Counted from the stretch's first letter, positions 6,893 to 24,825 are shown. The stretch is DNA of 64,000 nt from Alistipes sp. (GCA_045537095.1 JAZSOV010000129.1:24665-88664); one strand, 5' to 3'. Notes: generated from the letters alone by a model not told the origin. A program made the numbers and translations.

Positions 6893-6967
6893 GGGAGCTT
6901 AGCTCAGCTGGTTTAGAGCATCTGCCTTACAAGCAGAGGGTCGGGGGTTCGAATCCCTCAGCTCCCA
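6893..6967 (+). tRNA. tRNA-Val (anticodon TAC)
   Basis: GGGAGCT/AGCTCCC acceptor stem, D-arm, anticodon loop CTTACAA and T-loop GTTCGAATC. Confidence 0.97.
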
Positions 6968-6974
6968 CAAAATC

Positions 6975-7003
6975 AAGACGACTTTTTTGAGTCGTCTTTT
7001 TTT
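6975..7003 (+). terminator. Intrinsic terminator of tRNA-Val
   Basis: AAGACGACT/AGTCGTCTT stem plus T-tract. Confidence 0.85.
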
Positions 7004-7018
7004 GTGTCCGCTGAGAGA

Positions 7019-7222
7019 TTCGTCGGCTTGTTGCGCCTCGGCTGACTTGTCTGCGCTATCAGAAGAGTGCGCAGTGTTGCTGCGCAACTATGGAATATTG
7101 GTTGAGTAATATCTGCTCAAACAAGTTTGGCTTCTATTATCAACCAACATCCCAAACCTTCGGTTGTTCTGCCCACTCTTTTTGCTTGGTCCGCTCTCGG
7201 CTGCTGCCGCCGTTCGAATCCC
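7019..7222 (+). repeat. tRNA-linked ~200-nt dispersed element, copy 1
   Basis: Collinear similarity to the reverse complement of 53312-53516. Ends in GTTCGAATCCC, identical to tRNA-Val 6947-6957. Confidence 0.75.
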
Positions 7223-7303
7223 GTGAGGTGGGAAGAAGGCGGTGTTTAAAATAATGCCAGACAAATTTTTGACTCTTTTTACATATATTTGAGCTATTTT
7301 TAG

Positions 7304-7311
7304 TATATTTG
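7304..7311 (+). promoter_or_regulatory. Probable promoter (-7 element) of the TIR/RyR operon
   Basis: TATATTTG about 90 nt upstream of the ATG at 7403. Confidence 0.6.
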
Positions 7312-7402: not shown

Positions 7403-9961
7403 ATGAAGAAGCGTAGATATGTCGATTGGTCTATTTTGTTATTGTGCATTATAGGCTTTATGATAGAGTTTCTATCTACATCAATAGTGGCAGATATTAC
7501 GGTGTATGTATTAGGATGTTTTGGTATCCTCTATTGCTTGTGCTGCATAGTGGTATTTTGCTACCCGATTAGACGCGATTGGATCTTGGCGAAAGGGAAT
7601 TTTCTGATAAAGGTTCTGAATTTCGTGTTATTGATTCCATTTGTTCTTGCATCTGTTTTCAATTGGATAGATAAGCGAGAGTCAGATCCGCGAAATCTGC
7701 TATTCGATGAAAATCTGTATACATACAGCAAAGCAAGCGTTGATACATTAGGCGTATCACGAATGTCCATATTCAAAGATCCTCTGTTTTTGGATATTCA
7801 CGACCTGGAAACAATCAACGATTCGGTTGTTATACGGAGAAGTAAATTGCCGAAATATGGAGTTGCAGAGCAGAGAGATCCATCTCTATTTTGGACTGTC
7901 TACTGCCACTTTATGGATTCGGGCAATCAACATATGGCTGCATCGGAAACCGGCAGAAAAAGGGCTGCGCTGATTGCTATCTTGGGTTTTCTCCTTATGA
8001 ACGGATTGTTGATATCGACCTTGATCGATTGGTTTGACCGCCGCCGCGATTTGTGGATTAGAGGAGAGATAAGTTATAGGTTTTTCAAGCGCAGATTTCG
8101 CCTGTCAAAGCACTATGTAGTCATTGGTGGCGGCGATGTGGTTGTTGGTATTGTTGAACAGTTGCTGTGCAGGAGGAATAAGCGTGGCTTGCCATATATT
8201 GTAGTCCAAACATCGGGCGATGTGGATGCTCTTCGCCGCCGACTCTTCTCGACATTGACAGAGCCGCAACAACGACACATCGTGCTATACTATGGCAGCA
8301 GTACCTCGGAGGAGGATCTGTGGAGGTTGGGACTCAATAATGCCGAAGAGGTATATATCTTGGGAGAGGATGCCGGTTCTGACGATGTCGATTCCTACCA
8401 CGATACCCTGAATATGGAGTGTCTTAAACTCTTGCAAAAATTGTATATGCAAACCTCTAATGGCGAGAGGATTACAGCAAAACTCGGAGAGGTTAACGAG
8501 CTTAAAGCGAAGTTCCGCATGGCGGGGGCGAGTGCGCAAAGCAAGGCTGAGGCGAAGGCGAAGGCGGCGGTAAAAGCGTTGCGAGAGGTGGCTGATAATG
8601 CCGAACTTGACCGCTGGTGGGGAGAGCGACCTCGACTCAAATGCCGTGTGATGTTCGAATATCAAACAACATTCTCTGTATTCCAATTCTTTGACATGGA
8701 TGAGCAGATAGGTACCTACATAGATTTCAAGCCGTTTAACTACTATGAAATGTGGGCTCAGAAGGTGCTTATCAATCGAGAGGTGGAACAGAGTGTTATA
8801 GAGAATAGATTTAAACAAATGAGGGGCTATCTGCCACTCGAAGGCAGTGAGGGTATAGCGCAAGATTCGGACGACTATGTACACCTCTTTATTGTCGGTA
8901 TGTCGCGAATGGGTGTAGCCATGGGTATCGAGGCTGCCCATTTAGCTCACTATCCAAACTATACCGAGCAGAGGCCGATACGCACCAAGATAACATTTAT
9001 AGATGCGAATGCCGACAGCGAGAAAGATTTCTTTATTGGCAGATTTAAAGATCTGTTTAATCTTTCGCATTGGCGTTACGGTGCAGCCAAAGAGGGAACG
9101 CTCGTATGGGAGAAGGTCAATGCTCCGCAATACGATATGTGTAACCACATAGGCGGAGACTTCCTCGATATTGAGTGGGAGTTTGTTGGTGGTGGTGTGG
9201 AGCAGAGTGCCATACAGGATTATATCCTATCGTCTGCCGATACCAATGCCAAGGTTACGATTGCGATATGTTTGCCTGAGTCGAATAGGGCGCATGCGAC
9301 AGCTCTCTATCTGAACAGGAAGATATATGAATCCGACAGAATTCTGCAAGTGCTGGTGTATAATCGTAATGGTAGCGCAATTATCAATGCTATCGGCGCG
9401 AATAATTTGCACCATCCATACCTCGGCAAGTTGAGAAGTTTCGGGTGTGCAACCGAATGCATGGTAATAAACCATGTGGATATTAGTGAGTATATAGGCA
9501 ATCAAATCGATAGAGCTTACAACGGAGGTAAAGAGGAGTATGCCATCGAAGAGGAGAAGGAGTATGGTGGCAAGTCGAAGGAGGCGATGCGTTGGTCGAG
9601 TATCTACAATGGCAATACAATTTGGACCAAGTTGCGTAGCATAGGTTTCAACCCTGACACGACTACTATTGATGAGGGGGCAATTCAGATATTGGCAGAT
9701 GTCGAACACAACCGATGGAATGTTGAGGAGTTGCTGATGAACTTCCGCCCACTCACTGCGACCGAACAGGCTGATGTGGTTGCCGGAAAGGTTACAAAGG
9801 ATCAGAAGAAGTCAGAGATGGCCCATTTGAACATTTGCTCTAACAGAGGACTGTTAGAGATAGATGCAGCATCTCAGGAGTATGATAAAACTCTCACCTC
9901 CGTACTTGGCGACATTTACCACAAGGTAAAGATGATGGACGAAACCACCGCACGAGATTGA
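7403..9961 (+). CDS. Ion-channel-like protein: TM segments + CASTOR/POLLUX-like pore + two RCK/Rossmann-like domains + C-terminal RyR domain
   Basis: Pore helix/filter LFWTVYCHFMDSGNQH followed by a TM helix; Rossmann motifs HYVVIGGG and HLFIVGMSRMG; RyR-like LADVEHNRWNVE...AHLNI...EYD. Confidence 0.75.
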   Translation: MKKRRYVDWSILLLCIIGFMIEFLSTSIVADITVYVLGCFGILYCLCCIVVFCYPIRRDWILAKGNFLIKVLNFVLLIPFVLASVFNWIDKRESDPRNLLFDENLYTYSKASVDTLGVSRMSIFKDPLFLDIHDLETINDSVVIRRSKLPKYGVAEQRDPSLFWTVYCHFMDSGNQHMAASETGRKRAALIAILGFLLMNGLLISTLIDWFDRRRDLWIRGEISYRFFKRRFRLSKHYVVIGGGDVVVGIVEQLLCRRNKRGLPYIVVQTSGDVDALRRRLFSTLTEPQQRHIVLYYGSSTSEEDLWRLGLNNAEEVYILGEDAGSDDVDSYHDTLNMECLKLLQKLYMQTSNGERITAKLGEVNELKAKFRMAGASAQSKAEAKAKAAVKALREVADNAELDRWWGERPRLKCRVMFEYQTTFSVFQFFDMDEQIGTYIDFKPFNYYEMWAQKVLINREVEQSVIENRFKQMRGYLPLEGSEGIAQDSDDYVHLFIVGMSRMGVAMGIEAAHLAHYPNYTEQRPIRTKITFIDANADSEKDFFIGRFKDLFNLSHWRYGAAKEGTLVWEKVNAPQYDMCNHIGGDFLDIEWEFVGGGVEQSAIQDYILSSADTNAKVTIAICLPESNRAHATALYLNRKIYESDRILQVLVYNRNGSAIINAIGANNLHHPYLGKLRSFGCATECMVINHVDISEYIGNQIDRAYNGGKEEYAIEEEKEYGGKSKEAMRWSSIYNGNTIWTKLRSIGFNPDTTTIDEGAIQILADVEHNRWNVEELLMNFRPLTATEQADVVAGKVTKDQKKSEMAHLNICSNRGLLEIDAASQEYDKTLTSVLGDIYHKVKMMDETTARD

Positions 9962-10004
9962 TAGCTCAACAAATAATTGAGATTTGCTTTACTGCAAATA
10001 GATA

Positions 10005-10913
10005 ATGTTGAAAATAATTGATTATGAAGCAGCAATGATTAAACCTTCCGAATTTATACATCCTCACGATGCGGCGGCGTTGCGGCAGCTGGAAAATATA
10101 CCGGGATTTCCTACCCTTGTGAAGAAGATCCTTCAATTGGGATTGGAGCAGATGCGATATGGCGTAAATATGGCTTCAAATATACGATTGTCGCCTACGC
10201 AGTTGCCCGAACTATACAACCATCTACCTCCTATCTGCGAGAAACTCGGCATACCGGAGCCGGAGTTCTATTTGGAGATGAACCCTATGCCTAACGCCTA
10301 TACCTATGGCGATAGCCGAATCTTCATAACCATAACATCCGGACTTGTCGATTTGTTGGACGATGAGGAGTTGGATGCCGTGATTGCCCACGAGTGCGGC
10401 CATATATTGTGCCGTCATGTGCTATACCATAGTGTTGCCGTAGAGATTTTGCGCGGAGCAGACCAATTGGGTTTTCTCGGAAGCTTGTCGCTCCCGATTC
10501 AACTCGCCATACTGCATTGGTATCGTATGAGCGAACTCTCATGCGACAGATGTGGCAGTATCATAACCTCGCCGGCGGTTGTTGCCCGTACCATGGCTCG
10601 ACTTGCCGGAGGACCGAAGAGCATCACCGCAGAACTCAATATGGCGGAGTGGGCAAAACAGGCAGACAGGTACGAGGCAATTCGTAATGATGGCTTGTGG
10701 AATAAGTCGCTCCAACTCTATGTAACTCTCGGCCTCGATCACCCATTTAATGCAGTGCGAGTGCGTGAAATACTTAATTGGGAGCAGAGCGAGCAGTATA
10801 AAAACCTGATGCGAAATTTGGAAATGGGTGGCGCAGGAAAGAGGTGCCAAAGATGCAATCGCGTGGTATCTTCCGATTGGGCATATTGTAAATATTGCGG
10901 AGCGAAACTATAA
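10005..10913 (+). CDS. M48 (Ste24/HtpX-like) zinc metallopeptidase with C-terminal zinc ribbon
   Basis: PNAYT, AHECGH (HExxH), ELSCDR, DHP motifs; terminal CQRC...YCKYCG. Alternative start at 10035. Confidence 0.9.
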   Translation: MLKIIDYEAAMIKPSEFIHPHDAAALRQLENIPGFPTLVKKILQLGLEQMRYGVNMASNIRLSPTQLPELYNHLPPICEKLGIPEPEFYLEMNPMPNAYTYGDSRIFITITSGLVDLLDDEELDAVIAHECGHILCRHVLYHSVAVEILRGADQLGFLGSLSLPIQLAILHWYRMSELSCDRCGSIITSPAVVARTMARLAGGPKSITAELNMAEWAKQADRYEAIRNDGLWNKSLQLYVTLGLDHPFNAVRVREILNWEQSEQYKNLMRNLEMGGAGKRCQRCNRVVSSDWAYCKYCGAKL

Positions 10914-10927
10914 ATTGCTATATTAAA

Positions 10928-13525
10928 ATGGAATACACATATCACTATTACGCTTTTATAAGTTATGCTACAACCGATTCGAAATGGGCGAAGTGGTTGC
11001 AGCATCAGCTATCCTATTATCATATTCCATCTTCGGTTCGTAAAAGTCAGATTGGTATACCTCAAAAGTTGCGCCCAATCTTTATTTACGAGTACGATTT
11101 GTCTGGAAACCGACTGCACGAAGCTCTGCAGCAAGAGTTGCAGGCATCGAAGTATTTGATTGTCATTTGCAGCCCTGCATCAGCCAAATCAAAATATGTA
11201 AATGATGAAATTGTGGAGTTTATTCGCGAGGGGCGCGAAGATTATATCATCCCGTTTATTGTCGGAGGCGAGGTAAACGCCTCTGATCCTGCTAAAGAGT
11301 GTTTCCCTCCTGCACTGCGCGAATTAGTATCTAAAACAGAGTTGCGCGGTGCTGATGTAGCAACCAACGGTAAGCAACACGCTTTGGTAGATGTTGTTGC
11401 CACTATGTTGGGTGTAAGGCGAGATCTTTTGTGGAATCGCTATAAGATACGCCAAAGGAAACAGCGAATTGCTATGTGTGCCGCTGCGATTTTCGCTATT
11501 CTTTGCGCTCTATTCTATTGGGACTATACACGCCCGACATATCACTATTTTGCTGATTATGTTGATGTTTGGGGCGCGCCAAAGGGAATTATCGAACTCG
11601 ATAAAGAGCAGGTAAAGCATCGTAATCACTCCTATCGCTTTGAAATGCGTCGTATTCCAATTGGTCAACCTAATGCATATAGTTGGCGTTTAGCTAAGGT
11701 TGCCAATATCAATTCTGCCGGTAATCCTAAGGAGATAGAAGAGACTGCCTTCAATGACAGATATCCGGTTACGGAGCTTGTTTATCATCCTGAAAATGGT
11801 AGTTTGACCGATATTATTTATTGTGATACTAAGGGTAAAAAACAACTCTCGCACAAACTTTCAAACTATAATGGAGTTGCTGCAGCAATTGTGGATATAG
11901 AGAGTACTGTAGCGGGTGAAGCAACTACATTTGCCAAAAACATTACGAATATAGGATCGGATAAGAATGATCGAAAATCACGCATTACTCGCTACGCATA
12001 TAGCCGTAACGAGGATGGATATATCACCAAGGTAACCTATCACGCCAACAATGATGTAAATTTGGAACGAAGTGCTGTTGCCGATAATAATGCTGTTTGG
12101 GGCATTGCATACAAATTAGACTCGTTGGGGCGTCGTATTCATGTTCAATATCTAAATAAAGATGGCTCATATTTTAGCAACAATATAGGCGTGTCGGCTC
12201 GTTGTTATCAATATGATAATAACGGAAATATGCTTATTGAAACAAGTGTAGATATCAACGGTAATCCAATATTAAATGAATATCTTGTAGCGAAATATAT
12301 TTCCAAATATGATGAGCGAGGAAATGTAACAGAGGTATCATATTATGGAATAGATGGCAATCCGTGTTTGATTAATGATGGCTATGCCAAATGGGTTGCA
12401 AAATATGATGATCGAGGTAACGAAACCGAAACATCATATTATGGAATAGATGGAAAACCGTGTTTGCATAAAGATGGCTATGCCAAATGGGGTTCAAAAT
12501 ATGATGATCGAGGTAACCGAACAGAGATATCATGCTATGGAATAGATGGCAATCCGTGTTTGGCTAATGATGGCTTTGCCAAATTGGTTGCCAAATATGA
12601 TGAGCGAGGTAACCTAACAGAGTCGTCATTCTATGGAATAGATGGAAAACCTTGTTTGCATAAAGACGGCAATGCCAAATGGGTTTCAAAATATGATGAG
12701 CGAGGAAATGAAATAGAGAGGTCATTCTATGGAATAGATGGCAATCCGTGTTTGAGCAATTATGGCTTTGCAAAATACATTGCAAAATATGATGAGCGAG
12801 GTAATCAAACAGAGGAATCATACTATGGAATAGATGGCAATCCGTGTTTGGCTAATGATGGCTTTGCCAAATTGGTTGCCAAATATGATGAGCGAGGAAA
12901 TGAAATAGAGAGGTCATATTACGGAATAGATGACAAACCGTGTTTGCATAAAGATGGTAACGCAAAATGGGTTTCAAAATATGATGATCGAGGTAACCGA
13001 ACAGAGATATCATGCTATGGAATAGATGGCAATCTATGTTTGTGCAATTATGGCTATGCCAAATGGGTTGCAAAATATGATGATCGAGGTAACGAAACCG
13101 AAACATCATATTATGGAATAGATGGAAAACCTTGTTTGCATAAAGACGGCAATGCCAAATGGGTTTCAAATTATGATGAGCGAGGAAATAAAATAGAGAG
13201 GTCATTCTATGGAATAGATGGCAATCTATGTTTGTGCAATTATGGTTATGCCAAATGGGTTGCAAAATATGATGAGCGAGGAAATGAAATAGAGAAGTCA
13301 TTCTATGGAATAGATGGCAATCCGTGTTTGAGCAAAGAGGGCATTGCCAAATGGGTTCTAAAATATGATGATCGAGGTATCCTAACAGAGGTATCACTCT
13401 ATGGAATAGACGGGGCTCCGTGTTTGAGCATATTCGGTTATGCGAAAGCGACAATTAGTGCTCGTGGAGTAACTTACTACGATGAAAAAAATAATGATAT
13501 AACATATAAATTTACAAACCAATAA
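10928..13525 (+). CDS. TIR-domain membrane protein with extracytoplasmic YD/RHS-like tandem repeats
   Basis: N-terminal AFISY...LIVICSPASAKSKYVNDEI (TIR, catalytic-position Glu present), one TM helix (IAMCAAAIFAILCALFYW), then 32-aa repeats. Start set at MEYTY. Confidence 0.85.
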   Translation: MEYTYHYYAFISYATTDSKWAKWLQHQLSYYHIPSSVRKSQIGIPQKLRPIFIYEYDLSGNRLHEALQQELQASKYLIVICSPASAKSKYVNDEIVEFIREGREDYIIPFIVGGEVNASDPAKECFPPALRELVSKTELRGADVATNGKQHALVDVVATMLGVRRDLLWNRYKIRQRKQRIAMCAAAIFAILCALFYWDYTRPTYHYFADYVDVWGAPKGIIELDKEQVKHRNHSYRFEMRRIPIGQPNAYSWRLAKVANINSAGNPKEIEETAFNDRYPVTELVYHPENGSLTDIIYCDTKGKKQLSHKLSNYNGVAAAIVDIESTVAGEATTFAKNITNIGSDKNDRKSRITRYAYSRNEDGYITKVTYHANNDVNLERSAVADNNAVWGIAYKLDSLGRRIHVQYLNKDGSYFSNNIGVSARCYQYDNNGNMLIETSVDINGNPILNEYLVAKYISKYDERGNVTEVSYYGIDGNPCLINDGYAKWVAKYDDRGNETETSYYGIDGKPCLHKDGYAKWGSKYDDRGNRTEISCYGIDGNPCLANDGFAKLVAKYDERGNLTESSFYGIDGKPCLHKDGNAKWVSKYDERGNEIERSFYGIDGNPCLSNYGFAKYIAKYDERGNQTEESYYGIDGNPCLANDGFAKLVAKYDERGNEIERSYYGIDDKPCLHKDGNAKWVSKYDDRGNRTEISCYGIDGNLCLCNYGYAKWVAKYDDRGNETETSYYGIDGKPCLHKDGNAKWVSNYDERGNKIERSFYGIDGNLCLCNYGYAKWVAKYDERGNEIEKSFYGIDGNPCLSKEGIAKWVLKYDDRGILTEVSLYGIDGAPCLSIFGYAKATISARGVTYYDEKNNDITYKFTNQ
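12305..13456 (+). repeat. 12 tandem 96-nt (32-aa) coding repeats
   Basis: Unit KYD(E/D)RGNxxExSxYGIDGxPCLxxxGxAKxxx recurs at exact 96-nt spacing (12305, 12401, ...). Confidence 0.95.
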
Positions 13526-13536
13526 TATTTAGCACT

Positions 13537-13821
13537 ATGTTTTTCAACGAAGAAGGAGTCTTGAATATTGACGAGATGGTTGTCAATAATGCATCTTTCA
13601 AGAGTATGATGGAGGATGGCGCAATCTCCGATGAGGAGATTAAGGCGCAGTCCGATAAGGTGGTAGCAATACTTCGCGATATGGAGTCAAAGTACAACGA
13701 AGAGCAACTTGCCGAGATTAAGAACTTGCTTGTCGAGTCAAGCGTATTGTACGCTGCGTATAATTTTTATTCAATTCAGAACATTAACACAAGTAATAGT
13801 TATGGCAACTTTCAGCACTAA
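13537..13821 (+). CDS. Small acidic helical protein with a TerB/EF-hand-like DGAISDEE motif
   Basis: 94-aa ORF tightly packed in the operon; the motif is only a partial match. Confidence 0.6.
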   Translation: MFFNEEGVLNIDEMVVNNASFKSMMEDGAISDEEIKAQSDKVVAILRDMESKYNEEQLAEIKNLLVESSVLYAAYNFYSIQNINTSNSYGNFQH

Positions 13822-14308
13822 ACAGATTCTATACGGCTCGGCATCTTTGATTCCGACTATTGCAAGTCGCATTCAGGAGGAGTTTCAGAAGGAGGGCTAC
13901 GAAGTGGTGGTTGATGCGTTGAGTAGTGGAGGTTGTGATATATCCATTACAAAAGGTGGATTATTCAAGGCTGTGTTGGGAATGAAGACGGCATTGAAAG
14001 TTACCCTTCTTCCACAGGGTGGTAATATACACTTTGAGGCCGGCGTAGGAATTTGGGGACAGCAGGCTATACCGACCATTATCTCCATGTTCTTCTTTTG
14101 GCCTGTTCTGATAACTCAGGTTTGGGGCATAATCGAACAGTCGAAACTCGATGACAAAGCGTTGGAAATAGCCAATGATATACTTGCTACGAATAATAAT
14201 CACCATGCGCATCCAACAATCTCCGATATGGGCAGGTTCTGCACGAGTTGTGGTGCTCAGAATGCGGACGATTCCAACTTCTGTTGCAAATGCGGTAAAC
14301 CTCTTTAA
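13802..14308 (+). CDS. Membrane protein with C-terminal double zinc ribbon
   Basis: Start MATFS; hydrophobic segment IPTIISMFFFWPVLI; FCTSCG...FCCKCG. Confidence 0.8.
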   Translation: MATFSTKQILYGSASLIPTIASRIQEEFQKEGYEVVVDALSSGGCDISITKGGLFKAVLGMKTALKVTLLPQGGNIHFEAGVGIWGQQAIPTIISMFFFWPVLITQVWGIIEQSKLDDKALEIANDILATNNNHHAHPTISDMGRFCTSCGAQNADDSNFCCKCGKPL

Positions 14309-14319
14309 TATTTAGTGAC

Positions 14320-16530
14320 ATGCTATTGTATCAGATTTGGGATTTTATTGTAAAGTTCTGGCACGAGAAGTTTCAAGGCATACTATTGGTTTGGGGACAG
14401 CCGTGCGGGGATGCAAACTCTCTTGAATGGGGCAGTTTGGGCTATTGGATGCTCTTTTTCATCCTCTTTGCAATTGCGTTAGTCTGCTTATTGTGTAAGT
14501 CCAAGATGATAAAGAGACTCTCAAAACACATACTGCTGTTGTCGTTTATAGTATGGGCTCTGGGCGTATTTATCTACATCATAGGATTCTACAATAACGG
14601 TGTGAATGGTCTGTCGGTAACTCTTCGAGCAATCATCTCCTCGTTTAAGATGTTTGTTGTATCGCATGATTTGGCGCGTGTTCTCAAAGTTTTGCAGACC
14701 AATATCTGGTATATGACAGCCTTCTCCATTGTTCACTTTGCGGCCGCCTTCATAACATTCTTGTTTATCTTCAAGATGTTGGGCTACAAGATTAGATCAT
14801 CGTGGAATCTGTTTTGGCATAGACGCTCGTATAGCTCGAAGGGGAGAGTTGTCCATATATTTTGGGGTGTTAATGAGGCCTCGTGCCTGCTCGCCGAGAG
14901 CATACGCCGAAACCATGCGACCGAAACAATCATATTTATTGATATAGATAAGGAGCATAACGACAATTCGCAGAGGAAACTTACGCTGAATCAGATAACC
15001 AATATCGTTACCATAAGCAATAGCGAGGCAGAGCGCCTGGATGAGATAGGAGCTTTTGTGGATCACTGCTATAATGGCCCGTCCGCGCTTAAGGATGAGG
15101 ATAATGCGGATATCTTTGGCAGTCTGAATTTGAACAATATCGGAGGTATTGTAGAGAAGAGCGCGACCGCAAACTTCTACTTCCTATCCGATAATGAGGA
15201 TGAGAATGTTACAGGCGCATTGAACTTGCAAAGAGATAGGCGGTTTAGTTCGATGGACTGTTCGAAGTGTACCATTTATGTACACGCTCGCCGTGATGCC
15301 AACAACGAGATTCTGGACCACTATTCGCAATACGATGGAGAGGCGCATCGCATCCCAACCAAGATTATAGACTCGGCCTATTTGGCAATCACCACCTTGA
15401 AAAACGAAGACAGGGCCTTGCCGGTGAATTGTGTTAAAATCAACAAATCGACAGGATTGGTCGATTCTCCTTTCTCGGCTTTGATAGTTGGTTTTGGCAG
15501 CACAGGTCAGGAAGCGTTCAAATTCTTGTATGAGTACTCTGCGTTTATTGGTTCCGACATGAAAAGGAGTCCGTTCAAGTGCTACGCAATTGACGAGAAG
15601 ATGAACAAGATAGCGGGACTTATTCGTGCGAAGATGCCCGATATTGGCGAGGATGAACTCGAACTCATTCAGACCATGGTAGACTCCGAGGAGTTCTGGA
15701 ATAGGGTGGCCACCATAATAGACGACCTGAATTATGTGGTGATAGCTCTTAATAACGATACTCTGGGTTTATCTCTTGCCGTTAATTTGTTTAAGTACTC
15801 TTTGAAAAGTCGATCGGCGAGACTTCCGATGCTCAAAATTATGGTCAGATGCTATGACAATAGCAATGAGAGGCGAATGACAGAGGTTATAAGCAATCTT
15901 AATCACTCCATCGAGGGCAGCAATATAGAGATTGTTCTGTTCGGTACGGAGGCAGAGTTGTATAGTTGTGATACTATATTGTCGGACAAGACCTTATTGC
16001 AGGCCAAGGAGTTCAACAGAGTTTACGAGAACTCACAATCGCCGGCCGAGGAGCAGTGGAATAAAAACTTTGGCGAGGCGGAGATCTCCCGATTGATGAC
16101 CGAGAAGAAGATGACGCGCTATCATGCCATATATGATATCAATCGTCGTATAGTTCAGAATATATCCAACTCGTATCATTGCCGTACCAAGATGATTTTG
16201 ATGGGTTTTGGCAAGGAGGAGTGTTCGGAACGACTGAGATTGTACTATGGTTATGTAAATGCCCGTGGTAAAGATAGTACGAAGTATAAATGCAATGAAG
16301 AGGATGCACAACTTCTTCTGAATATGGCAATGGTGGAACACGAACGCTGGATAGCCTCTCATCGCCTTTTAGGCTATACATATAGCCCGAAGAGCGACTG
16401 CGTGAGGAGGCATCATGAGTGCCTTTGCCCTTGGGAAAATCTCGATGAAAAGAGACAGTCTTACGACTGCAATGTAGTAGATACGACCATAAAATTGGCC
16501 TACGCATCCGCCAAGGAGAGCGATAAATAA
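14320..16530 (+). CDS. Second TM + RCK/Rossmann-like + RyR-domain channel-like protein
   Basis: Several N-terminal TM segments; HIFWG and ALIVGFGSTG Rossmann motifs; C-terminal MAMVEHERWIASHRLLGYTY...HECLCPWENL...SYD matches the stand-alone RyR protein. Confidence 0.8.
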   Translation: MLLYQIWDFIVKFWHEKFQGILLVWGQPCGDANSLEWGSLGYWMLFFILFAIALVCLLCKSKMIKRLSKHILLLSFIVWALGVFIYIIGFYNNGVNGLSVTLRAIISSFKMFVVSHDLARVLKVLQTNIWYMTAFSIVHFAAAFITFLFIFKMLGYKIRSSWNLFWHRRSYSSKGRVVHIFWGVNEASCLLAESIRRNHATETIIFIDIDKEHNDNSQRKLTLNQITNIVTISNSEAERLDEIGAFVDHCYNGPSALKDEDNADIFGSLNLNNIGGIVEKSATANFYFLSDNEDENVTGALNLQRDRRFSSMDCSKCTIYVHARRDANNEILDHYSQYDGEAHRIPTKIIDSAYLAITTLKNEDRALPVNCVKINKSTGLVDSPFSALIVGFGSTGQEAFKFLYEYSAFIGSDMKRSPFKCYAIDEKMNKIAGLIRAKMPDIGEDELELIQTMVDSEEFWNRVATIIDDLNYVVIALNNDTLGLSLAVNLFKYSLKSRSARLPMLKIMVRCYDNSNERRMTEVISNLNHSIEGSNIEIVLFGTEAELYSCDTILSDKTLLQAKEFNRVYENSQSPAEEQWNKNFGEAEISRLMTEKKMTRYHAIYDINRRIVQNISNSYHCRTKMILMGFGKEECSERLRLYYGYVNARGKDSTKYKCNEEDAQLLLNMAMVEHERWIASHRLLGYTYSPKSDCVRRHHECLCPWENLDEKRQSYDCNVVDTTIKLAYASAKESDK

Positions 16531-16540
16531 ATCTTGTATT

Positions 16541-18490
16541 ATGACACATTACGATATATTTATAAGCTATCGTAGAAGTTCTTACGATACAGCAAATCTG
16601 GTTGCTACACGATTGAAGGCTGCGGGATACTCCGTATTCTTTGATATGGAGACTCTGCGCTCCGGTAAGTTCAACGAACAGTTGTATAATGTGATTGACA
16701 ACTGCACCGATTTTGTGGTTGTGCTACCGCCAAATGCCTTGGATCGCTGTGTCAATGAGGACGATTGGGTACGCTTGGAGGTAACTCGCGCAATGAAGGG
16801 GAATAAGAATATTGTTCCCATAATGTTGAATGGCTTTAAGTGGCCCAATCCGATGCCAAATGGCTTGGAGGAGTTGAGCGACTATCAGTCATTGACAGCA
16901 AGCTCTGTGGAGTATTTCGATATGGCAATGGAGCGACTCCAAAAACGATACCTGCTGAGCAAGCCACGCTTCCCGATTGTCAAAGTACTGAAATATCTTG
17001 GGGTGGCACTACTCGCGTTATTCTCGGCGATGGCCATTGTATGGGGCGTATTTATGACCTTGTCGCGGGATGTATGTACGAAATATGCTACTCGTTTGAC
17101 CATGGATGCCAATAATGTCCATGTCATAGCCGAAGAAAACGACAAACTACAAAAAGAGTGGACGACATTCAATAGTACGCTCAATATCGAATCGCGCCCT
17201 GAGCGAATTGCCGGTTTGAAGGAGTCTATGTTACAGAGGATTGACTTGGCCGAGGAGAGTGTCAGAAGGAGTTGGAGCGTAGATTCGGTGCGAATGAACA
17301 TCGAACCATATCATAGTTTTCTGCTCTCCATCAATGGTATCAATGCCGAGGAGATAGCACTTTCGCCGGAGTTTGCAACACTCTACTACATGGAGTATTT
17401 AGAAAATCTCAATACGATTCGCAATGCGGTTGATAATCCGATAACATTGAGAAAACGCTATGTGGATGCGCTGTTCGAGGCATCGCACCACTCAATGAAT
17501 GTCTATTATGCCACTATGTTGTCGGAGATATCATCTTTCCCTAAATATGCACGCAAGACATATAGTGAGTCTTCGAAAAAGTGGATATATTTCAGAGCGG
17601 ACTGCCCGTACGAGTTGGATAGAGATAGCGAATACTACGAGAATATAATGAATACAGAGCAGCAGTTGGCCGAGGATGCCTTATCGCGTTTTGAAAATAT
17701 GCTCGAACAGCAAGATGCTCAATTGGAGGATATCAAACAGCAAAATGACAATCTCGAAAGGCAGGTCGAAAAGGGTTTGTCGGATTTGAAACTGAAGGCT
17801 GATTCTGCTGCAATGGCGGCTCAGGCTATGGCGGAGATTGAACGCATAAAGCGAGAGAATGAGCATGAGTTGGCTCTGCGCCGCGAAAAGGTTGAGGCAA
17901 AGCGGGTTGCTGTGGCCTCTGCGAAGGCCGAATTGGAGGAGTTGGACAAGGAGTATGTCAAGACATACGAGAGTTTGAAAGAGAAATGTTCGTTGGAGGA
18001 AGAGGACGGCCAGTGGTACAAGTGGGGCAAGATTCGCCGCTGGGGTTCTTTCTTGGCGATGTTGGTCAATAGCCGACAAAAGTTGCAATCGCAAGGCATA
18101 TATAGCACCTCCTCGGTTACTCCTGAGGTCGCCTATGCCGATATGAATAGTATGTTGGCGGTCTATCAGGCCTATCATCCTGAAAGTGAAAGATATGTTG
18201 CCTCGGCAAAGCAATTCTTCCGCGAATTGTCGAAGGGTAAGAGAGATTATCGAGGAACGATAATATTTGGATTTAAGGATAACGAGGAACATCCGTTCCT
18301 TCGTCAAGGAGATATCATTGTAGGGTATGATGGTCAGAAGATCAAGACATATGATAATTTGAAAACGCTCTATCAAAACAATAAATCGGGACAGATCGCG
18401 TTTTTACGATTGGAGGGCGGAGAATTTAATAGCCATACAGAGCAGATTGCCAATATGGATATAGTCGGTTTTCTCGAACTTACGGAGTAG
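16541..18490 (+). CDS. TIR-domain membrane protein with coiled coil and C-terminal PDZ-like domain
   Basis: YDIFISYRR...VFFD...DWVRLE (TIR, Glu present)...NIVPI; one TM helix; heptad-rich region; LRQGDIIVGYDG. Confidence 0.85.
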   Translation: MTHYDIFISYRRSSYDTANLVATRLKAAGYSVFFDMETLRSGKFNEQLYNVIDNCTDFVVVLPPNALDRCVNEDDWVRLEVTRAMKGNKNIVPIMLNGFKWPNPMPNGLEELSDYQSLTASSVEYFDMAMERLQKRYLLSKPRFPIVKVLKYLGVALLALFSAMAIVWGVFMTLSRDVCTKYATRLTMDANNVHVIAEENDKLQKEWTTFNSTLNIESRPERIAGLKESMLQRIDLAEESVRRSWSVDSVRMNIEPYHSFLLSINGINAEEIALSPEFATLYYMEYLENLNTIRNAVDNPITLRKRYVDALFEASHHSMNVYYATMLSEISSFPKYARKTYSESSKKWIYFRADCPYELDRDSEYYENIMNTEQQLAEDALSRFENMLEQQDAQLEDIKQQNDNLERQVEKGLSDLKLKADSAAMAAQAMAEIERIKRENEHELALRREKVEAKRVAVASAKAELEELDKEYVKTYESLKEKCSLEEEDGQWYKWGKIRRWGSFLAMLVNSRQKLQSQGIYSTSSVTPEVAYADMNSMLAVYQAYHPESERYVASAKQFFRELSKGKRDYRGTIIFGFKDNEEHPFLRQGDIIVGYDGQKIKTYDNLKTLYQNNKSGQIAFLRLEGGEFNSHTEQIANMDIVGFLELTE

Positions 18491-18563
18491 AAATTTTTGT
18501 CCTCGTATGACAGATGCGGGCGGCAAAATTGCTCTATGATATAGAGATAAAAATAAAAAAACG

Positions 18564-18854
18564 ATGAAAAATAATTATGTACCGCAGCCGGCGGATATAA
18601 GTGATATTCGTTTGCCTGAGGAGCTGAATGAGCTGATAGAACAGATGGCTCGAAATGTTCACGAGGTGTGGGCGCAGAGCCGTATGGAGCAGGGATGGGT
18701 TTATGGTAAAGAGCGCAACGATGCCCTGAAACAACACCCTTGTCTTGTGCCGTATGAGGCGTTGCCGGAGGTGGAAAAGGCATACGATCGCGACACAGCC
18801 ATCGGAACATTGAAACTGGTATGTAAACTTGGATTTAAAATCACAAAAGATTGA
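18564..18854 (+). CDS. Stand-alone RyR (ryanodine receptor repeat) domain protein
   Basis: MARNVHEVWAQSRMEQGWVYG...HPCLVPYEALPEVEKAYDR is a classic RyR domain signature. Confidence 0.93.
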   Translation: MKNNYVPQPADISDIRLPEELNELIEQMARNVHEVWAQSRMEQGWVYGKERNDALKQHPCLVPYEALPEVEKAYDRDTAIGTLKLVCKLGFKITKD

Positions 18855-18855
18855 T

Positions 18856-19290
18856 ATGTTTATTGCAATTTCTCTCTTGATACTTGCTTTTATGATTAAG
18901 GGCAAGGATGTATCCGGACTCCTCAAAAAGGTCAAAAATGTTGATTGGCGCAACAAAATCAACTCTCTTATGGATAAGCTTCGCCCGTGGGCGTTAAAGG
19001 CAGGGCGTGTAGCCTCTCGTCCGCTGTTGCAGTTCTACTATGTGATGGATGATGACAATACATCGACTCTTGACCGAGTTCTTATCTACGCAGCAATTGC
19101 CTATACCATCCTGCCGATGGACTTTATTCCGAGCGTTGTCTACAAACTTATGGGACTTGTGGATGATGGCGTTGCTGTACTATATGTCTACAAGAAGATT
19201 AAGAACAAGATAACACCGGAGATCGATCGCAAGGTTGAGGGGACTTTGAATGAGTGGTTCGGCGTAGAGTACGAAATGGTGAAGGAATAA
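18856..19290 (+). CDS. DUF1232/YkvA family membrane protein
   Basis: AAIAYTILPMDFIPS...GLVDD motif. Start set just after the RyR stop codon. Confidence 0.85.
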   Translation: MFIAISLLILAFMIKGKDVSGLLKKVKNVDWRNKINSLMDKLRPWALKAGRVASRPLLQFYYVMDDDNTSTLDRVLIYAAIAYTILPMDFIPSVVYKLMGLVDDGVAVLYVYKKIKNKITPEIDRKVEGTLNEWFGVEYEMVKE

Positions 19291-19305: not shown

Positions 19306-19346
19306 AAACAACTGAGCCGATTTTTGGGGAGTGCAGTTGTTTTTTT
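19306..19346 (+). terminator. Probable terminator closing the TIR/RyR operon
   Basis: AAACAACTG/CAGTTGTTT stem plus T-tract. Confidence 0.6.
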
Positions 19347-21734: not shown

Positions 21735-22015
21735 GCTCAGCTAGCCCACAAGGGCTAGGTGGGCAGACATATTAACGAGACGTTTACTTGACGTTTATCA
21801 TCCTCGTTCAAACTTCGCAACTTTGAATCTTTACTAGATGATACGGCAATGTTGGCGTCCATGGGTGATGTTTATCCGAATAGCATGCATAATTGCGTGG
21901 AGTTCTGTATATTCATCTCGGCGTGGGCTAGCTGCATTGTATATCCTAGTGAAGGGGCAATGCGAAGGCCTGAACGAGGGATGTGCAAGAGTACAGTTCC
22001 CACGTCTTCTTTTTT
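21735..22015 (+). ncRNA. Candidate structured 5' leader / ncRNA
   Basis: Nested complementary segments (21799-21810/21971-21983, 21813-21819/21961-21967, 21829-21837/21946-21954), an alternative 12-bp pairing 21738-21749/21923-21934, and a terminal U-tract. Confidence 0.6.
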
Positions 22016-22068
22016 ATAAATCCAAAATCTGGGGAACAATATGGATTAAAAAGAGCATATTGACTACA

Positions 22069-23394
22069 ATGGATTTTCATTACTATAAAATTGAAGATTG
22101 TGAAGTTTTTATAGGGAATGATTCCGTCTTCTTGTTAGAACCAGAAACAGGATCAACCCTGTTGCTGTCTAAAACAGCGTGGCAAAATATTCTTCAAAAC
22201 AAAGAATCAAAAAATCATTTAACAGAACTACTTCGTGCACAAAGTGGAAAAAATTGCATCAGGAAGAACTCTTTCTTACCACAATTTTTTATGATTGACC
22301 TAACTACTACTTGTAGTAATAGGTGTACATATTGTTTTCGTAATTTACAGCATCCAAGAATAATTGACAATAGGATTTTAAACGATATTTTAAATTCCAT
22401 TATCAACTATTGCAAAGAATATAATATCAAGACTATTACTCTACAGGTATGGGGAGGAGAGCCTCTATCAACATGGGATAAAATATGTCTAATACAAGAT
22501 AAGATAGAGGATGCTGGTATAAAGGTGCGACTTTTGGTGGAAACTAATGGAGTCTTGGTAACCCCTCAAATAGCTGCAAATATGTACCATAGGGGAATTT
22601 TGTGCAGCATAAGTATAGATGGTCCACAAGATATTCATGACCATTGTCGAAAATTACACTCTGGAAATGGTTCATATAAAAATACTATTCGGGGTTTGAA
22701 TTTACTAAGAGATGCGGGATATGGAAGTCAAATAGGAAGTGTGTGCGTGGTTACAAGGAACTCGATACCCCACATTGACAGAATTTTAGATCATTTTGCT
22801 TATGAACTAAAATTTTCTCGGATTAAATTAAATATAATCAAAGATAGTGAACAATTACAAGACAAGGATTTATGCATCGATGATAAAGACTTGGCTGTGT
22901 TATGGGAAACAGTGTTATCGCACATCATTCGCATAAATCAAAGCGGAACACCATTTGTTGAGAGTACGATATTATCAATGTTGCACAATTTAACAACGCA
23001 TCGTCCAACCAGTTTTTGCTATTCCAGGGGTTGTCAAGCGGGACAGCGTATGCTATCGTTTGATATGGAAGGAAATGCTTTCCCATGCGATCAAACAGAT
23101 GTTAAAGAACTATCGCTTGGTAATGCATTATTGAGTCCTATTGATTTATTGGTAAAAGAAGGCTTCAAGAAACTACACTCATTCTTTGCTATGGATATCC
23201 CCAACGAATGTTGTGTGTGCGCTTGGAGAAGTTTTTGTCAGGGCGGATGTCGAACAATACGATGGTTCAGTAATGACATAGATCGAGCAACTTGTATACG
23301 AAATAAAACCTTATACCCACAACTGGTAAGGCTAATATTAGAAAAACCACTCTTGATTACAGCCATAAGTGGCAATGAGATCAAGTTTGAATAG
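22069..23394 (+). CDS. Radical SAM/SPASM peptide-maturase-like enzyme 1 (possible N-terminal RRE-like extension)
   Basis: CSNRCTYC, GGEP, ETNG, SIDG; SPASM cysteines CYSRGC...FPC...CCVC...CQGGC...C. Start reassigned to MDFHYY. Confidence 0.9.
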   Translation: MDFHYYKIEDCEVFIGNDSVFLLEPETGSTLLLSKTAWQNILQNKESKNHLTELLRAQSGKNCIRKNSFLPQFFMIDLTTTCSNRCTYCFRNLQHPRIIDNRILNDILNSIINYCKEYNIKTITLQVWGGEPLSTWDKICLIQDKIEDAGIKVRLLVETNGVLVTPQIAANMYHRGILCSISIDGPQDIHDHCRKLHSGNGSYKNTIRGLNLLRDAGYGSQIGSVCVVTRNSIPHIDRILDHFAYELKFSRIKLNIIKDSEQLQDKDLCIDDKDLAVLWETVLSHIIRINQSGTPFVESTILSMLHNLTTHRPTSFCYSRGCQAGQRMLSFDMEGNAFPCDQTDVKELSLGNALLSPIDLLVKEGFKKLHSFFAMDIPNECCVCAWRSFCQGGCRTIRWFSNDIDRATCIRNKTLYPQLVRLILEKPLLITAISGNEIKFE

Positions 23395-23436
23395 ATAAAC
23401 CCAATATTGGGCTAACTTGATTAAATTTATTTTATT

Positions 23437-23538
23437 ATGAAGAAGATTGAGAATATTCAGTCGGTAGCAGTCGGTAGTATTATTTCTAACGATGATTGGA
23501 TTGTAGCTGGTTACGACAATTTTTGTGTAATTGCTTAA
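23437..23538 (+). CDS. Putative RiPP precursor peptide, 33 aa: MKKIENIQSVAVGSIISNDDWIVAGYDNFCVIA
   Basis: Translated by hand (below the ORF-track cut-off). AT-rich start context, MKK start, position between two rSAM genes, followed at once by a stem-loop. Confidence 0.7.
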   Translation: MKKIENIQSVAVGSIISNDDWIVAGYDNFCVIA

Positions 23539-23545
23539 TCCTAAT

Positions 23546-23578
23546 GAGGTTGTTCGACTTTTTTTGTTGAGCAACCTC
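23546..23578 (+). terminator. Stem-loop after the peptide ORF (terminator or mRNA stabiliser)
   Basis: GAGGTTGTTCGAC/GTTGAGCAACCTC 13-bp stem including G-U pairs; no clear downstream U-tract. Confidence 0.65.
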
Positions 23579-23718
23579 TGCTCTCACTTAATTGCAGTGC
23601 CCCCCCCCAAAAAAAACGGGAACTTGCCTGATGTAAATAAGCATTTTGAAGGCGAATATTATGGCGAAATAATCTTGTTGTACGGAATTATCTTTTAATC
23701 AAGTAAAACAGATAATAA

Positions 23719-24825
23719 ATGAATAGAAAATGTACTTTACTAATAACTTATTCTTGTAATCTTAATTGTATTTATTGTTATGAGAAGCACAAATCATCTG
23801 TCTCAATGAATGTGCAAACCGCAAAAAATATAATTACAAAGGAGATTCAATTTATTGCAAATAGCGATAAATACGACTCAATAGATTTTCATTTTATGGG
23901 AGGAGAGCCTCTCTTGAACTTCGACCTAATAAAAAAAGTTTGCGAATGGGCATGGAATCAGAATTTTAACATACCTTTTCATTTCTATGTCATAACGAAC
24001 GGAACTCTATTTACCGATGATATCAAGCAATGGTTTGAATATAATAGACATCTAATCACGGTTGATATGTCTGTTGATGGAATTGATATCGTTCACAAAA
24101 CGAATAGAGGTTGTTCTCCAAGACAGTTACCTCTTGAATGGGTTTTGAAAAATTGGCCAATGTCAAGATTCAAAATGACTATATCTTCACAAAGTATCTC
24201 TCATCTTGCCGAAAGTATTATTACATTAACTAATCAAGGGTACAATATACTTGCAACTCTAGCATTGGGCGAAGAGTGGAATGAAGAAGAGTTTGCTATG
24301 TATGCAAAAGAATGGAATAAGATAGTTAACTATTATTTACATAACGAAAATCTAAATATATGGAAACAGCTTTTGCAATCTTTAGACTCATTATTCAACC
24401 TCAAACAAGATAAGTGTTGTGGTTCAGGAGATACATTTATAACATACAACTACAATGGAGATGCATATCCTTGTGTGATATTTTCTCCAATAGTGTGGGG
24501 CAAAGATATAAGAAATAGTATAGCCTCAATAGATTTTTCGGATATTGAATCATTCTCCGATAAAGATTGTCGAGATTGTTTCATTCGAAATGCATGTAAA
24601 ACTTGTTATGGTTTTAATCTATTAGAGAGAGGTAATTTGGCTTGCAGAGATAAACATAGTTGTAATGCAAAAAAGATTGAATTATTGTTTGTTAGCAAAT
24701 TCCAAATCGAACTATTGAAGAAAGTAACACAACGAGCACTCTCAGCTAAAGAATTAGTTAGATTACAACAAGCTAAAAAAGCTTTTGAAGTTTTGTCTAA
24801 CGAACTCTCTGTTTACTTGTCTTAA
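23719..24825 (+). CDS. Radical SAM/SPASM enzyme 2
   Basis: CNLNCIYC, GGEPLL, ITNG, SVDG; CCGSG...YPC...CRDC...CKTC...C. Confidence 0.92.
   Translation: MNRKCTLLITYSCNLNCIYCYEKHKSSVSMNVQTAKNIITKEIQFIANSDKYDSIDFHFMGGEPLLNFDLIKKVCEWAWNQNFNIPFHFYVITNGTLFTDDIKQWFEYNRHLITVDMSVDGIDIVHKTNRGCSPRQLPLEWVLKNWPMSRFKMTISSQSISHLAESIITLTNQGYNILATLALGEEWNEEEFAMYAKEWNKIVNYYLHNENLNIWKQLLQSLDSLFNLKQDKCCGSGDTFITYNYNGDAYPCVIFSPIVWGKDIRNSIASIDFSDIESFSDKDCRDCFIRNACKTCYGFNLLERGNLACRDKHSCNAKKIELLFVSKFQIELLKKVTQRALSAKELVRLQQAKKAFEVLSNELSVYLS

Follow-up and report, generated by a model that had tools for sequence, protein, structure and literature searches.

The 64,000-nucleotide stretch of Alistipes sp. DNA analysed here (GCA_045537095.1 JAZSOV010000129.1:24665-88664, hereafter the window) contains an operon of nine genes encoding two TIR proteins (TIR1 and TIR2), two channel-fold proteins with C-terminal RyR domains (ChanA and ChanB), a free RyR-domain protein, an M48 metalloprotease, a small acidic protein, a zinc-ribbon protein (ZnTM) and a DUF1232 membrane protein. 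Whichever of the two is taken as anchor, and in other lineages as well, TIR genes accompany RyR/channel genes much more often than chance would predict, and the operon likely represents an undescribed Thoeris-like pathway. In the reading that we favour, with a probability of about 0.45, a TIR-made messenger would open RyR-gated channels downstream of a repertoire of receptors, with cell arrest as the output of a defensive Thoeris-like pathway. Since the same wiring could serve a non-lethal envelope output, TIR-to-RyR signalling as such, defensive or not, appears probable. This reading builds on the observed gene set, the folds of the channel and RyR parts, the conservation of ligand and catalytic residues, linkage found from both anchors, and exchange at the level of genes.

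Channel-fold proteins

In AlphaFold models of ChanA (pLDDT 88.8, alignment of 116 sequences) and ChanB (pLDDT 85.3, alignment of 78 sequences), transmembrane (TM) helices with a short pore helix are joined to two RCK domains and a helical tail. ChanA has 4 TM helices plus the pore helix, tandem RCK domains and a C-terminal RyR domain, and ChanB has the same arrangement with 3 TM helices. Foldseek and VIA place both proteins with GsuK, Slo, KtrA/TrkA and CASTOR. Matches of the ChanA model include GsuK and Slo1 (both E about 1e-7) and CASTOR (E 5e-6), with VIA comparisons giving Z 15.8 for GsuK (351 aligned, rmsd 7.7) and Z 14.5 for CASTOR (318 aligned, rmsd 3.7); for the ChanB model, GsuK is matched with E 1.3e-7 (rmsd 13.0 for 355 aligned, Z 17.6). 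As modelled, both are pore and tandem-RCK channel folds resembling GsuK, Slo and CASTOR, in agreement with the first-pass annotation, which had proposed two TM-RCK channel proteins. At the sequence level, the ChanA profile matches DMI1, Slo2.2 and CASTOR at E 9e-5 to 1e-3, and three N-terminal ChanA matches fetched from Bacteroidia are Castor_Poll proteins. A profile match of 98.9% indicates that ChanA and ChanB are paralogous. A FastTree phylogeny of 86 proteins was rooted on three CASTOR-like sequences. It places ChanB together with widespread TrkA-RyR channels from other lineages (support 1.0); most ChanA proteins are on the opposite side of the tree, a weakly supported placement (0.76). 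Clustered at 50% identity, the sequences retrieved by the ChanB profile at E < 1e-30 make up 523 clusters; the search for its relatives on plasmids gave one partial match only.

The pore loop of ChanA (MDSGNQ; family consensus IDPGNQ) is CASTOR-like and shares the D-[PS]-G-N motif of bacterial Castor_Poll proteins. The TxGYG K+ filter is absent from ChanA and from the ChanB pore loop, and neither protein matches Castor_Poll_mid (PF06241) at E 0.05, a domain present in RyR-less relatives. ChanA and ChanB thus share the pore helix and tandem RCK fold of CASTOR/POLLUX/DMI1, GsuK and Slo and differ from CASTOR, GsuK and Slo in lacking Castor_Poll_mid and the K+ signature and in their added RyR tail. 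One Bacillota relative, a stand-alone channel with an RyR tail (L196:9582-11195), keeps a TVGYG filter and offers a simple model for electrophysiology.

RyR domains and the predicted ligand site

Pfam assigns RyR to ChanB (14320) and to the free RyR-domain protein (18564), the latter as annotated before and closely related to the Bacteroides structure 3NRT (E 5e-36). Of the two TM-RCK-RyR proteins previously proposed, ChanB is therefore recognized by Pfam, whereas Pfam makes no RyR call on ChanA, whose domain was assigned from the profile match to the ChanB family (98.9%), a weak match to the free RyR protein (34%, E 4e-4) and invariant residues. A degenerate second RyR repeat in the channels had no profile support and was rejected.

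Phage proteins of the same family (PF02026) bind or cleave cyclic ADP-ribose (cADPR) isomers, namely 2'/3'-cADPR and cADPR, according to the available portions of two 2026 preprints (PMC13232231, PMC13251945), to which all statements from these sources refer. RyR Tad binds 3'-gcADPR with a KD of 43 nM, and 2'-gcADPR and cADPR below 1 uM, through contacts at H129, W132, H154 and D171 (PMC13251945). RyDEP uses H75, W78, H100 and D117, and 6/8 of its homologs bind (PMC13232231). The quartet recurs in the free RyR protein (H33, W36, H58, D75), in ChanB (H674, W677, H699, D716) and, with an insertion, in ChanA (H769, W772, H808, D828), and the 3/25/42 residue spacing is common to RyDEP, RyR Tad, the free RyR protein and ChanB. 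A protein 98.4% identical to RyR Tad has the same residue numbers and aligns to the quartets of the free RyR protein and ChanB. All four columns are invariant or nearly so in the three RyR alignments: the H-x-x-W...H...D motif is found in 91/95 free RyR proteins, and ChanA relatives keep H, W and H in 44/44 and D in 43/44 sequences at a mean column identity of 23%. The RyR-cADPR link drawn in the earlier annotation thus finds a parallel in phage domains that bind cADPR isomers through residues kept here. Its RCK/RyR-gated channels stand as channel folds, with residue conservation indicating that the ligand site is likely the RyR domain rather than RCK.

The same residues could be read differently. 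The TIRs might act as NAD+-depleting effectors or through protein contacts, with RyR proteins soaking up or cleaving by-products and the channel RyR domains serving as brakes. SARM1 is an NADase (PMC7075850, available portion), the RyR proteins of phages act as sponges or hydrolases, and each of the three RyR domains here retains the His/Asp dyad. However, a domain fused to channels and other enzymes at their cytoplasmic end fits a sensor, and sponge-type homologs of RyDEP hold the same residues without catalysis (PMC13232231), and we consider this reading very unlikely. Guard-type nucleotide systems exist and provide a precedent for a further reading, in which the channel is kept closed by a constitutive TIR messenger and opens when a phage sponge, for example a phage RyR protein, removes that messenger. 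The RyR-like proteins found in 283 phage records speak for such a guard; however, channels persist without a nearby TIR, strains drop TIR1, and the guard would be counteracted by a free RyR sponge encoded alongside it, which makes this reading remote. A phage-borne origin of the free RyR gene was rejected, its protein having no relative in viral contigs in a close-match search.

In other loci, RyR is also fused to RelA/SpoT, cyclase plus TPR-S, SLOG, AAA and protease domains, which suggests, on domain architecture, a general nucleotide-sensing module. RelA/SpoT-TPR-(SLOG)-RyR and RyR-TPR-S-cyclase fusions occur in several phyla (L184-L187, L191, L195, L159, L182). A stand-alone protein of ~890 amino acids with two C-terminal RyR repeats is present in 17/87 genomes of one family (L112, L114, L119-L122, L129, L130; one copy with a weak NTPase match), with no TIR nearby in the fetched stretches. 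L003:5050-6610 and 18 similar loci contain a conserved pair of a 190-amino-acid sigma-like gene and a C39-like peptidase-RyR fusion, in which the second His is often Thr or Asn, suggesting a different ligand. Furthermore, RyR is fused to a conjugative TraG/VirD4 coupling protein (L074:8240-10273) and to PrsW (L067:1308-2492).

TIR proteins

Both TIR proteins have the domain order TIR-TM-outer domain, with one predicted TM helix each and basic residues on its TIR side. Their catalytic-position Glu residues (E94 in TIR1, E80 in TIR2) occupy one alignment column, in line with the earlier description of two single-pass proteins that keep this residue. TIR1 contains a ThsB-like TIR domain and an outer region in which a 32-amino-acid repeat occurs at least 13 times; a PDB search with TIR1 gave no match. 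TIR2 contains a SARM1-like TIR domain followed by a divergent outer domain with a probable coiled coil and a PDZ-like end, and identity within its family is 69% in the TIR and 29% in the outer domain. Against human SARM1, its TIR scores E 7.5e-25 and the Glu residues align, a likeness by match score and not by tree, whereas bacterial TIR structures reach 0.013 or worse; unlike SARM1, TIR2 is a bacterial membrane protein without ARM/SAM domains. Atlas searches with the two outer domains gave leads all under 0.9 (RHS-like repeat, PDZ).

The Glu is present in 115/117 TIR domains from RyR loci, and 47/86 TIR proteins have a TM helix after the TIR. The non-TIR parts of 81 TIR proteins form 38 groups, with partner domains including WD40, FGE-sulfatase, Lcl, Sel1, Macro and SIR2. 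From their domain organization, the TIRs look like receptors with predicted active sites.

Linkage of TIR, RyR and channel genes across genomes

The free RyR query identified 80 loci, of which 76 were scored and 4 without a scorable free RyR were left out. Counts refer to whole loci, as cassette (gene-run) counts are broken by spurious antisense open reading frames (ORFs) in some loci. TIR genes are present in 49 and channel genes in 48 of the 76 loci, compared to TIR in 0/28 control stretches; the 1.9-Mb genome of the locus contains 2 TIR genes outside the cassette. Furthermore, 72/86 TIR genes lie upstream of the free RyR gene on the same strand, with 630 kb of DNA scanned upstream vs 643 kb downstream. 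In the reverse direction, a TIR2 alignment identified 79 metagenome loci, 35 of them with RyR, and among those of at least 8 kb (n=34) RyR was present in 26 and a channel in 17; this set includes about five duplicate pairs, and its TIR2 query itself came from RyR loci. Among 16 more distant channel-type loci, 9 (two congeneric) have a same-strand TIR gene within three genes, compared to 0/3 RyR-less CASTOR-type channels, and one genome of another class (L115) encodes channel-RyR, TIR1-like, TIR2, M48 and ZnTM proteins together. The co-occurrence of TIR, RyR and RCK genes, proposed earlier as a check, thus holds from both anchors and in other lineages. RyR was found in 27/401 genomes of this phylum and in 8/151 and 8/251 genomes of two others, and its presence within the genus is patchy (8/36 genomes).

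A hypervariable cassette with exchangeable receptors

The relatives of the locus are metagenome-assembled genomes of herbivore-gut Bacteroidales, and close strains are present in gut metagenomes. The usual gene order is ChanA, a sigma-like gene (a label given as a reading without a Pfam match), a C39-like-RyR fusion, variable genes, ChanB, TIR2 and free RyR, followed by DUF1232, CreD or WG repeats. The variable slot contains M48/acidic/ZnTM, PrsW, TIR-X, CHAT-TPR or SIR2-TIR with nSTAND. The gap between the M48 and acidic genes holds different genes in 5/16 other loci listed, the sigma-like gene and PrsW occur in 16/76 and 21/76 RyR gene runs, and STAND/NACHT, CHAT, SIR2 and Macro genes are among the locus neighbours. 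Exchange is also evident between close strains: a joint from 10018 to 13536, which lacks M48 and TIR1, was found in runs X5 and X9 from two studies, including one 3855-bp contig with long sides, and a joint from 10900/10913 to 13536, which lacks TIR1, in runs X1 and X9 with short sides of 30-41 letters. In run X10, TIR1 is present and ChanA has no cover. The locus is therefore one state of a hypervariable Bacteroidales cassette with exchangeable receptors, and the fixed nine-gene system implied by the first-pass annotation was ruled out by gene content that varies between species and strains, many loci consisting of channel and free RyR only.

The junctions at 13522-13539 and 14305-14322 both consist of TAATATTTAG followed by 4 nt and ATG. 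As all strain joints end at 13536, the TAATATTTAG junction is a possible exchange hotspot, or possibly a translation signal.

The M48 protein, with HECGH at 129, a C-terminal zinc ribbon and a true start probably at 10035, has no predicted TM helix. ZnTM contains a conserved domain, a weak hydrophobic segment (TM score 1.71) and a C-terminal zinc ribbon; the domains previously annotated for an M48 protease with a zinc ribbon and a zinc-ribbon membrane protein were thus found, but the membrane segment of the latter is weak. D27 and E34 are conserved in the acidic protein, and family searches with the acidic and ZnTM proteins gave nothing reliable. ZnTM occurs in 5/360 genomes of the order, all 5 among the 13/400 with ChanA. 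M48/acidic/ZnTM appear to be an optional sub-module of the cassette, and DUF1232, found in the RyR gene run of 5/76 loci, a loosely attached tail gene. PrsW, the C39-like-RyR fusion and the sigma-like gene are further optional modules, present in other copies of the cassette.

Proposed pathway and alternative readings

In the proposed pathway, a threat at the cell envelope would be sensed by the outer domain of a single-pass TIR receptor, clustering it. Judged from the conserved Glu and the likeness to SARM1, the TIR would convert NAD+ to a cADPR-type messenger; canonical cADPR is our guess for the SARM1-like TIR2. The messenger is predicted, from the residues and the domain fusion, to bind the RyR tails of ChanA and ChanB and to open the pore, and the ion flux would likely arrest a cell that is infected or damaged. 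The free RyR protein would likely set a threshold, buffer or erase the signal, as judged from its phage counterparts. Enzyme activity, messenger identity, RyR gating, ion selectivity and the defensive output are thus steps that we infer.

Several points weigh against this pathway. The anchored locus sets are biased toward related herbivore-gut genomes, and the TIR2-anchored set is subject to the duplicates and query bias described above. Near the locus in 13 ChanA-anchored genomes, TIR is found in 5 and free RyR in 7 (8 with G657), and among 8 RyR loci of the genus TIR is near 1 and a channel near 6, with some contigs of both sets ending close to the locus. The TIR link is not obligatory, and channel and RyR pairs often have no TIR nearby. 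In the 54 RyR loci whose upstream DNA reaches at least 9 kb, TIR is present in 35, a channel in 36 and both in 24, compared to about 23 expected, so that at RyR loci the two occur independently of each other. According to the available portion of a 2020 survey, a conserved TIR Glu is no proof of activity (PMC7075850). The missing TxGYG filter counts against the proposal as well, as do the replacement of RyR Tad K147 and K170 by R51 and Y74 in the free RyR protein and the binding of ATP by the animal Repeat12 domain (PMC13251945), given which the ligand here may differ. No classic defence island surrounds the locus, and among the PADLOC 2023 models none fit the channels, the free RyR or the C39-like-RyR fusion, with TIR domains alone matching. 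With PADLOC and NCBIfam on the operon proteins, no system was named and only TIR-domain, weak HtpX and zinc-finger-type matches were returned; the 2023 PADLOC library is older than Thoeris types V-XI. Finally, outer-facing receptors, together with PrsW and a sigma-like gene, fit envelope signalling no less than phage defence.

The independence of TIR and channel presence, together with the common two-gene loci, favours a channel and free RyR pair that is a self-contained unit gated by a housekeeping nucleotide such as ATP, ADP, NAD or ADP-ribose, with the TIRs as passengers of a variable membrane-protein island. A GsuK structure containing ADP and NAD and the ATP bound by Repeat12 would fit such gating. 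The enrichment seen from TIR anchors too, and in distant lineages, argues against it, as does a TIR2-type TIR elsewhere in 3/5 genomes with minimal loci (3 of those 4 proteins with TM), a count with no RyR-less control genomes compared, which allows action in trans; we regard this alternative as distinctly unlikely.

Envelope or environment signalling would keep the TIR-RyR-channel wiring and replace cell arrest with a non-lethal output through Ca2+ or K+ flux, proteases and the sigma-like regulator. The single-pass TIRs with variable outer domains, the PrsW and sigma-like genes, the CASTOR-like pore loop of ChanA, CASTOR being a Ca2+-regulated Ca2+ channel (PMC6697748), and the lack of known defence genes nearby in the PADLOC search are all consistent with it. 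Patchy presence, many genomic sites, rapid gene exchange and the STAND/NACHT, CHAT, SIR2 and Macro neighbours fit conflict systems instead, which leaves envelope signalling a possible but somewhat unlikely output and the defensive pathway our preferred reading.

Operon layout and surroundings

ORF calls fill 7403..19290 with nine genes on the + strand (Table 1), spaced by 43, 14, 11, about -20, 11, 10, 73 and 1 nt, which bears out the close-packed, co-directional arrangement noted before. Pfam identifies TIR_2 in 10928 and 16541, Peptidase_M48 with a zinc ribbon, a second zinc ribbon, DUF1232 and, on 7403, a Slo-like RCK.

Table 1. Features of the operon and its borders, in window coordinates.
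Feature	Position	Strand	Basis
ChanA, channel-fold + RyR, 852 aa	7403..9961	+	TM prediction, AlphaFold model, structure matches
M48 metalloprotease, soluble	10005..10913	+	Pfam
TIR1, 865 aa	10928..13525	+	Pfam TIR_2
Small acidic protein, 94 aa	13537..13821	+	ORF, without reliable family
ZnTM, zinc-ribbon protein	13802..14308	+	Pfam zinc ribbon
ChanB, channel-fold + RyR, 736 aa	14320..16530	+	Pfam RyR, AlphaFold model
TIR2, 649 aa	16541..18490	+	Pfam TIR_2, SARM1 match
Free RyR-domain protein, 96 aa	18564..18854	+	Pfam RyR
DUF1232 membrane protein	18856..19290	+	Pfam
Terminator-like hairpin + T-run	19307..19345	+	Folding
Two TAnnTTTG motifs, possible promoter (weak)	7284..7311	+	Motif match

TAnnTTTG is the Bacteroidetes -7 promoter consensus. 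The motif is present at 7304, where a single promoter had been proposed, but a second copy lies at 7284 ahead of ChanA and the + strand of the window contains 29 occurrences, 6 of them inside the operon, which makes it a weak promoter candidate. The terminator placed at 19306 corresponds to a hairpin with a T-run at about 19307-19345 (-12.6 kcal/mol), although the terminator scan did not call it. A further strong hairpin (18495-18530, z -3.5) lies between TIR2 and free RyR; a conserved hairpin at this position was rejected, with z < -2 in just 6/66 loci.

A tRNA-Val gene with its own terminator is located at 6893-6968, beside the operon as annotated previously. The adjacency appears incidental, since tRNA-Val was found in 0/57 related stretches scanned (including 12 that surround the neighbouring mlaE gene) and neither the right border nor the cassette flanks showed a repeat of the 3' end of the tRNA; insertion at tRNA-Val as a mobile island was ruled out on the same grounds. 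No integrase is among the nine operon genes by ORF calls and Pfam. A clean empty site was not seen, and the nearest relative by flanking gene (G1048, 93%) carries other genes there. Directly 3' of tRNA-Val, 6973-7243 is a small repeated element with two 95% copies on contig C118, another copy where C9 ends and, close to the window's tRNA-Leu gene, a copy of 74%, and contigs from two runs join 7243 back to 6973. Downstream, 21838-24825 is a low-GC block (33-35%) with two radical-SAM genes, perhaps a RiPP-type cluster.

Comparison with known systems and implications

Thoeris TIRs signal to membrane effectors, and Thoeris type X of Bacillus sp. BH32 combines TIR proteins with the ion-channel effector ThsK, for which the signal is unknown (10.64898/2025.12.03.692087, available portion). 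As in Thoeris, including type X, Glu-bearing TIR genes share the operon with a gene for a membrane or channel effector, a locus holds several TIRs, and the separate effector has a putative ligand-binding module (channel-RyR), linked though not obligatorily. In contrast to type X, the TIR receptors here span the membrane once and carry large outer domains that vary, and the effector channel is built as pore-RCK-RCK-RyR, occurs as two paralogs and is accompanied by a free RyR protein. RyR, RCK and TrkA are absent from the available text of the type X preprint, the figures and tables of which may list such an effector (10.64898/2025.12.03.692087). By analogy, the operon would work like Thoeris, of which it is a candidate member.

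The RyR domains share PF02026 and the His/Trp/His/Asp quartet and spacing with phage RyDEP and RyR Tad, but unlike these anti-defence sponges or glycosidases they are host-encoded, both free and channel-fused; the available portions of PMC13232231 and PMC13251945 assign no role to bacterial channel-RyR fusions. For the Bacteroides thetaiotaomicron 'putative ryanodine receptor' (PDB 3NRT, 6UAG), a close relative of the free RyR protein, no pathway is described in the literature searched. That literature likewise contained no description of TIR-linked RyR channels, although older comparative genomics may have noted the fusions, and nothing relevant to RyR or ryanodine appears in the available portions of PMC7016017, PMC8195603 and PMC9503650.

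The locus adds linkage counts from both directions, a TIR that resembles SARM1, an operon with two channel paralogs, and receptor exchange at the level of strains. It points to a likely host-side function for the RyR domain, which is otherwise known from phage sponges or glycosidases and from animal Ca2+-release channels, where it is a nucleotide site. Furthermore, it represents, in abundant herbivore-gut bacteria, a TIR system whose receptors face outward and are exchangeable, with TIRs resembling SARM1; the available portion of the 2020 survey reports no bacterial SARM1 homologs (PMC7075850). Its small proteins also make the old question of cADPR action through Repeat12 testable. A more far-reaching version, which we consider unlikely, is a SARM1-cADPR-RyR axis in gut Bacteroidales, in which a repertoire of exchangeable, Toll-like single-pass receptors carrying TIRs similar to SARM1 makes cADPR that gates a CASTOR-like, Ca2+-permeable channel via Repeat12 (RyR). 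If true, RyR would be a general host-side sensor of ADP-ribose signals on channels, AAA ATPases, RelA/SpoT enzymes and proteases, and the operon would provide a direct model for the action of cADPR on animal RyRs through Repeat12.

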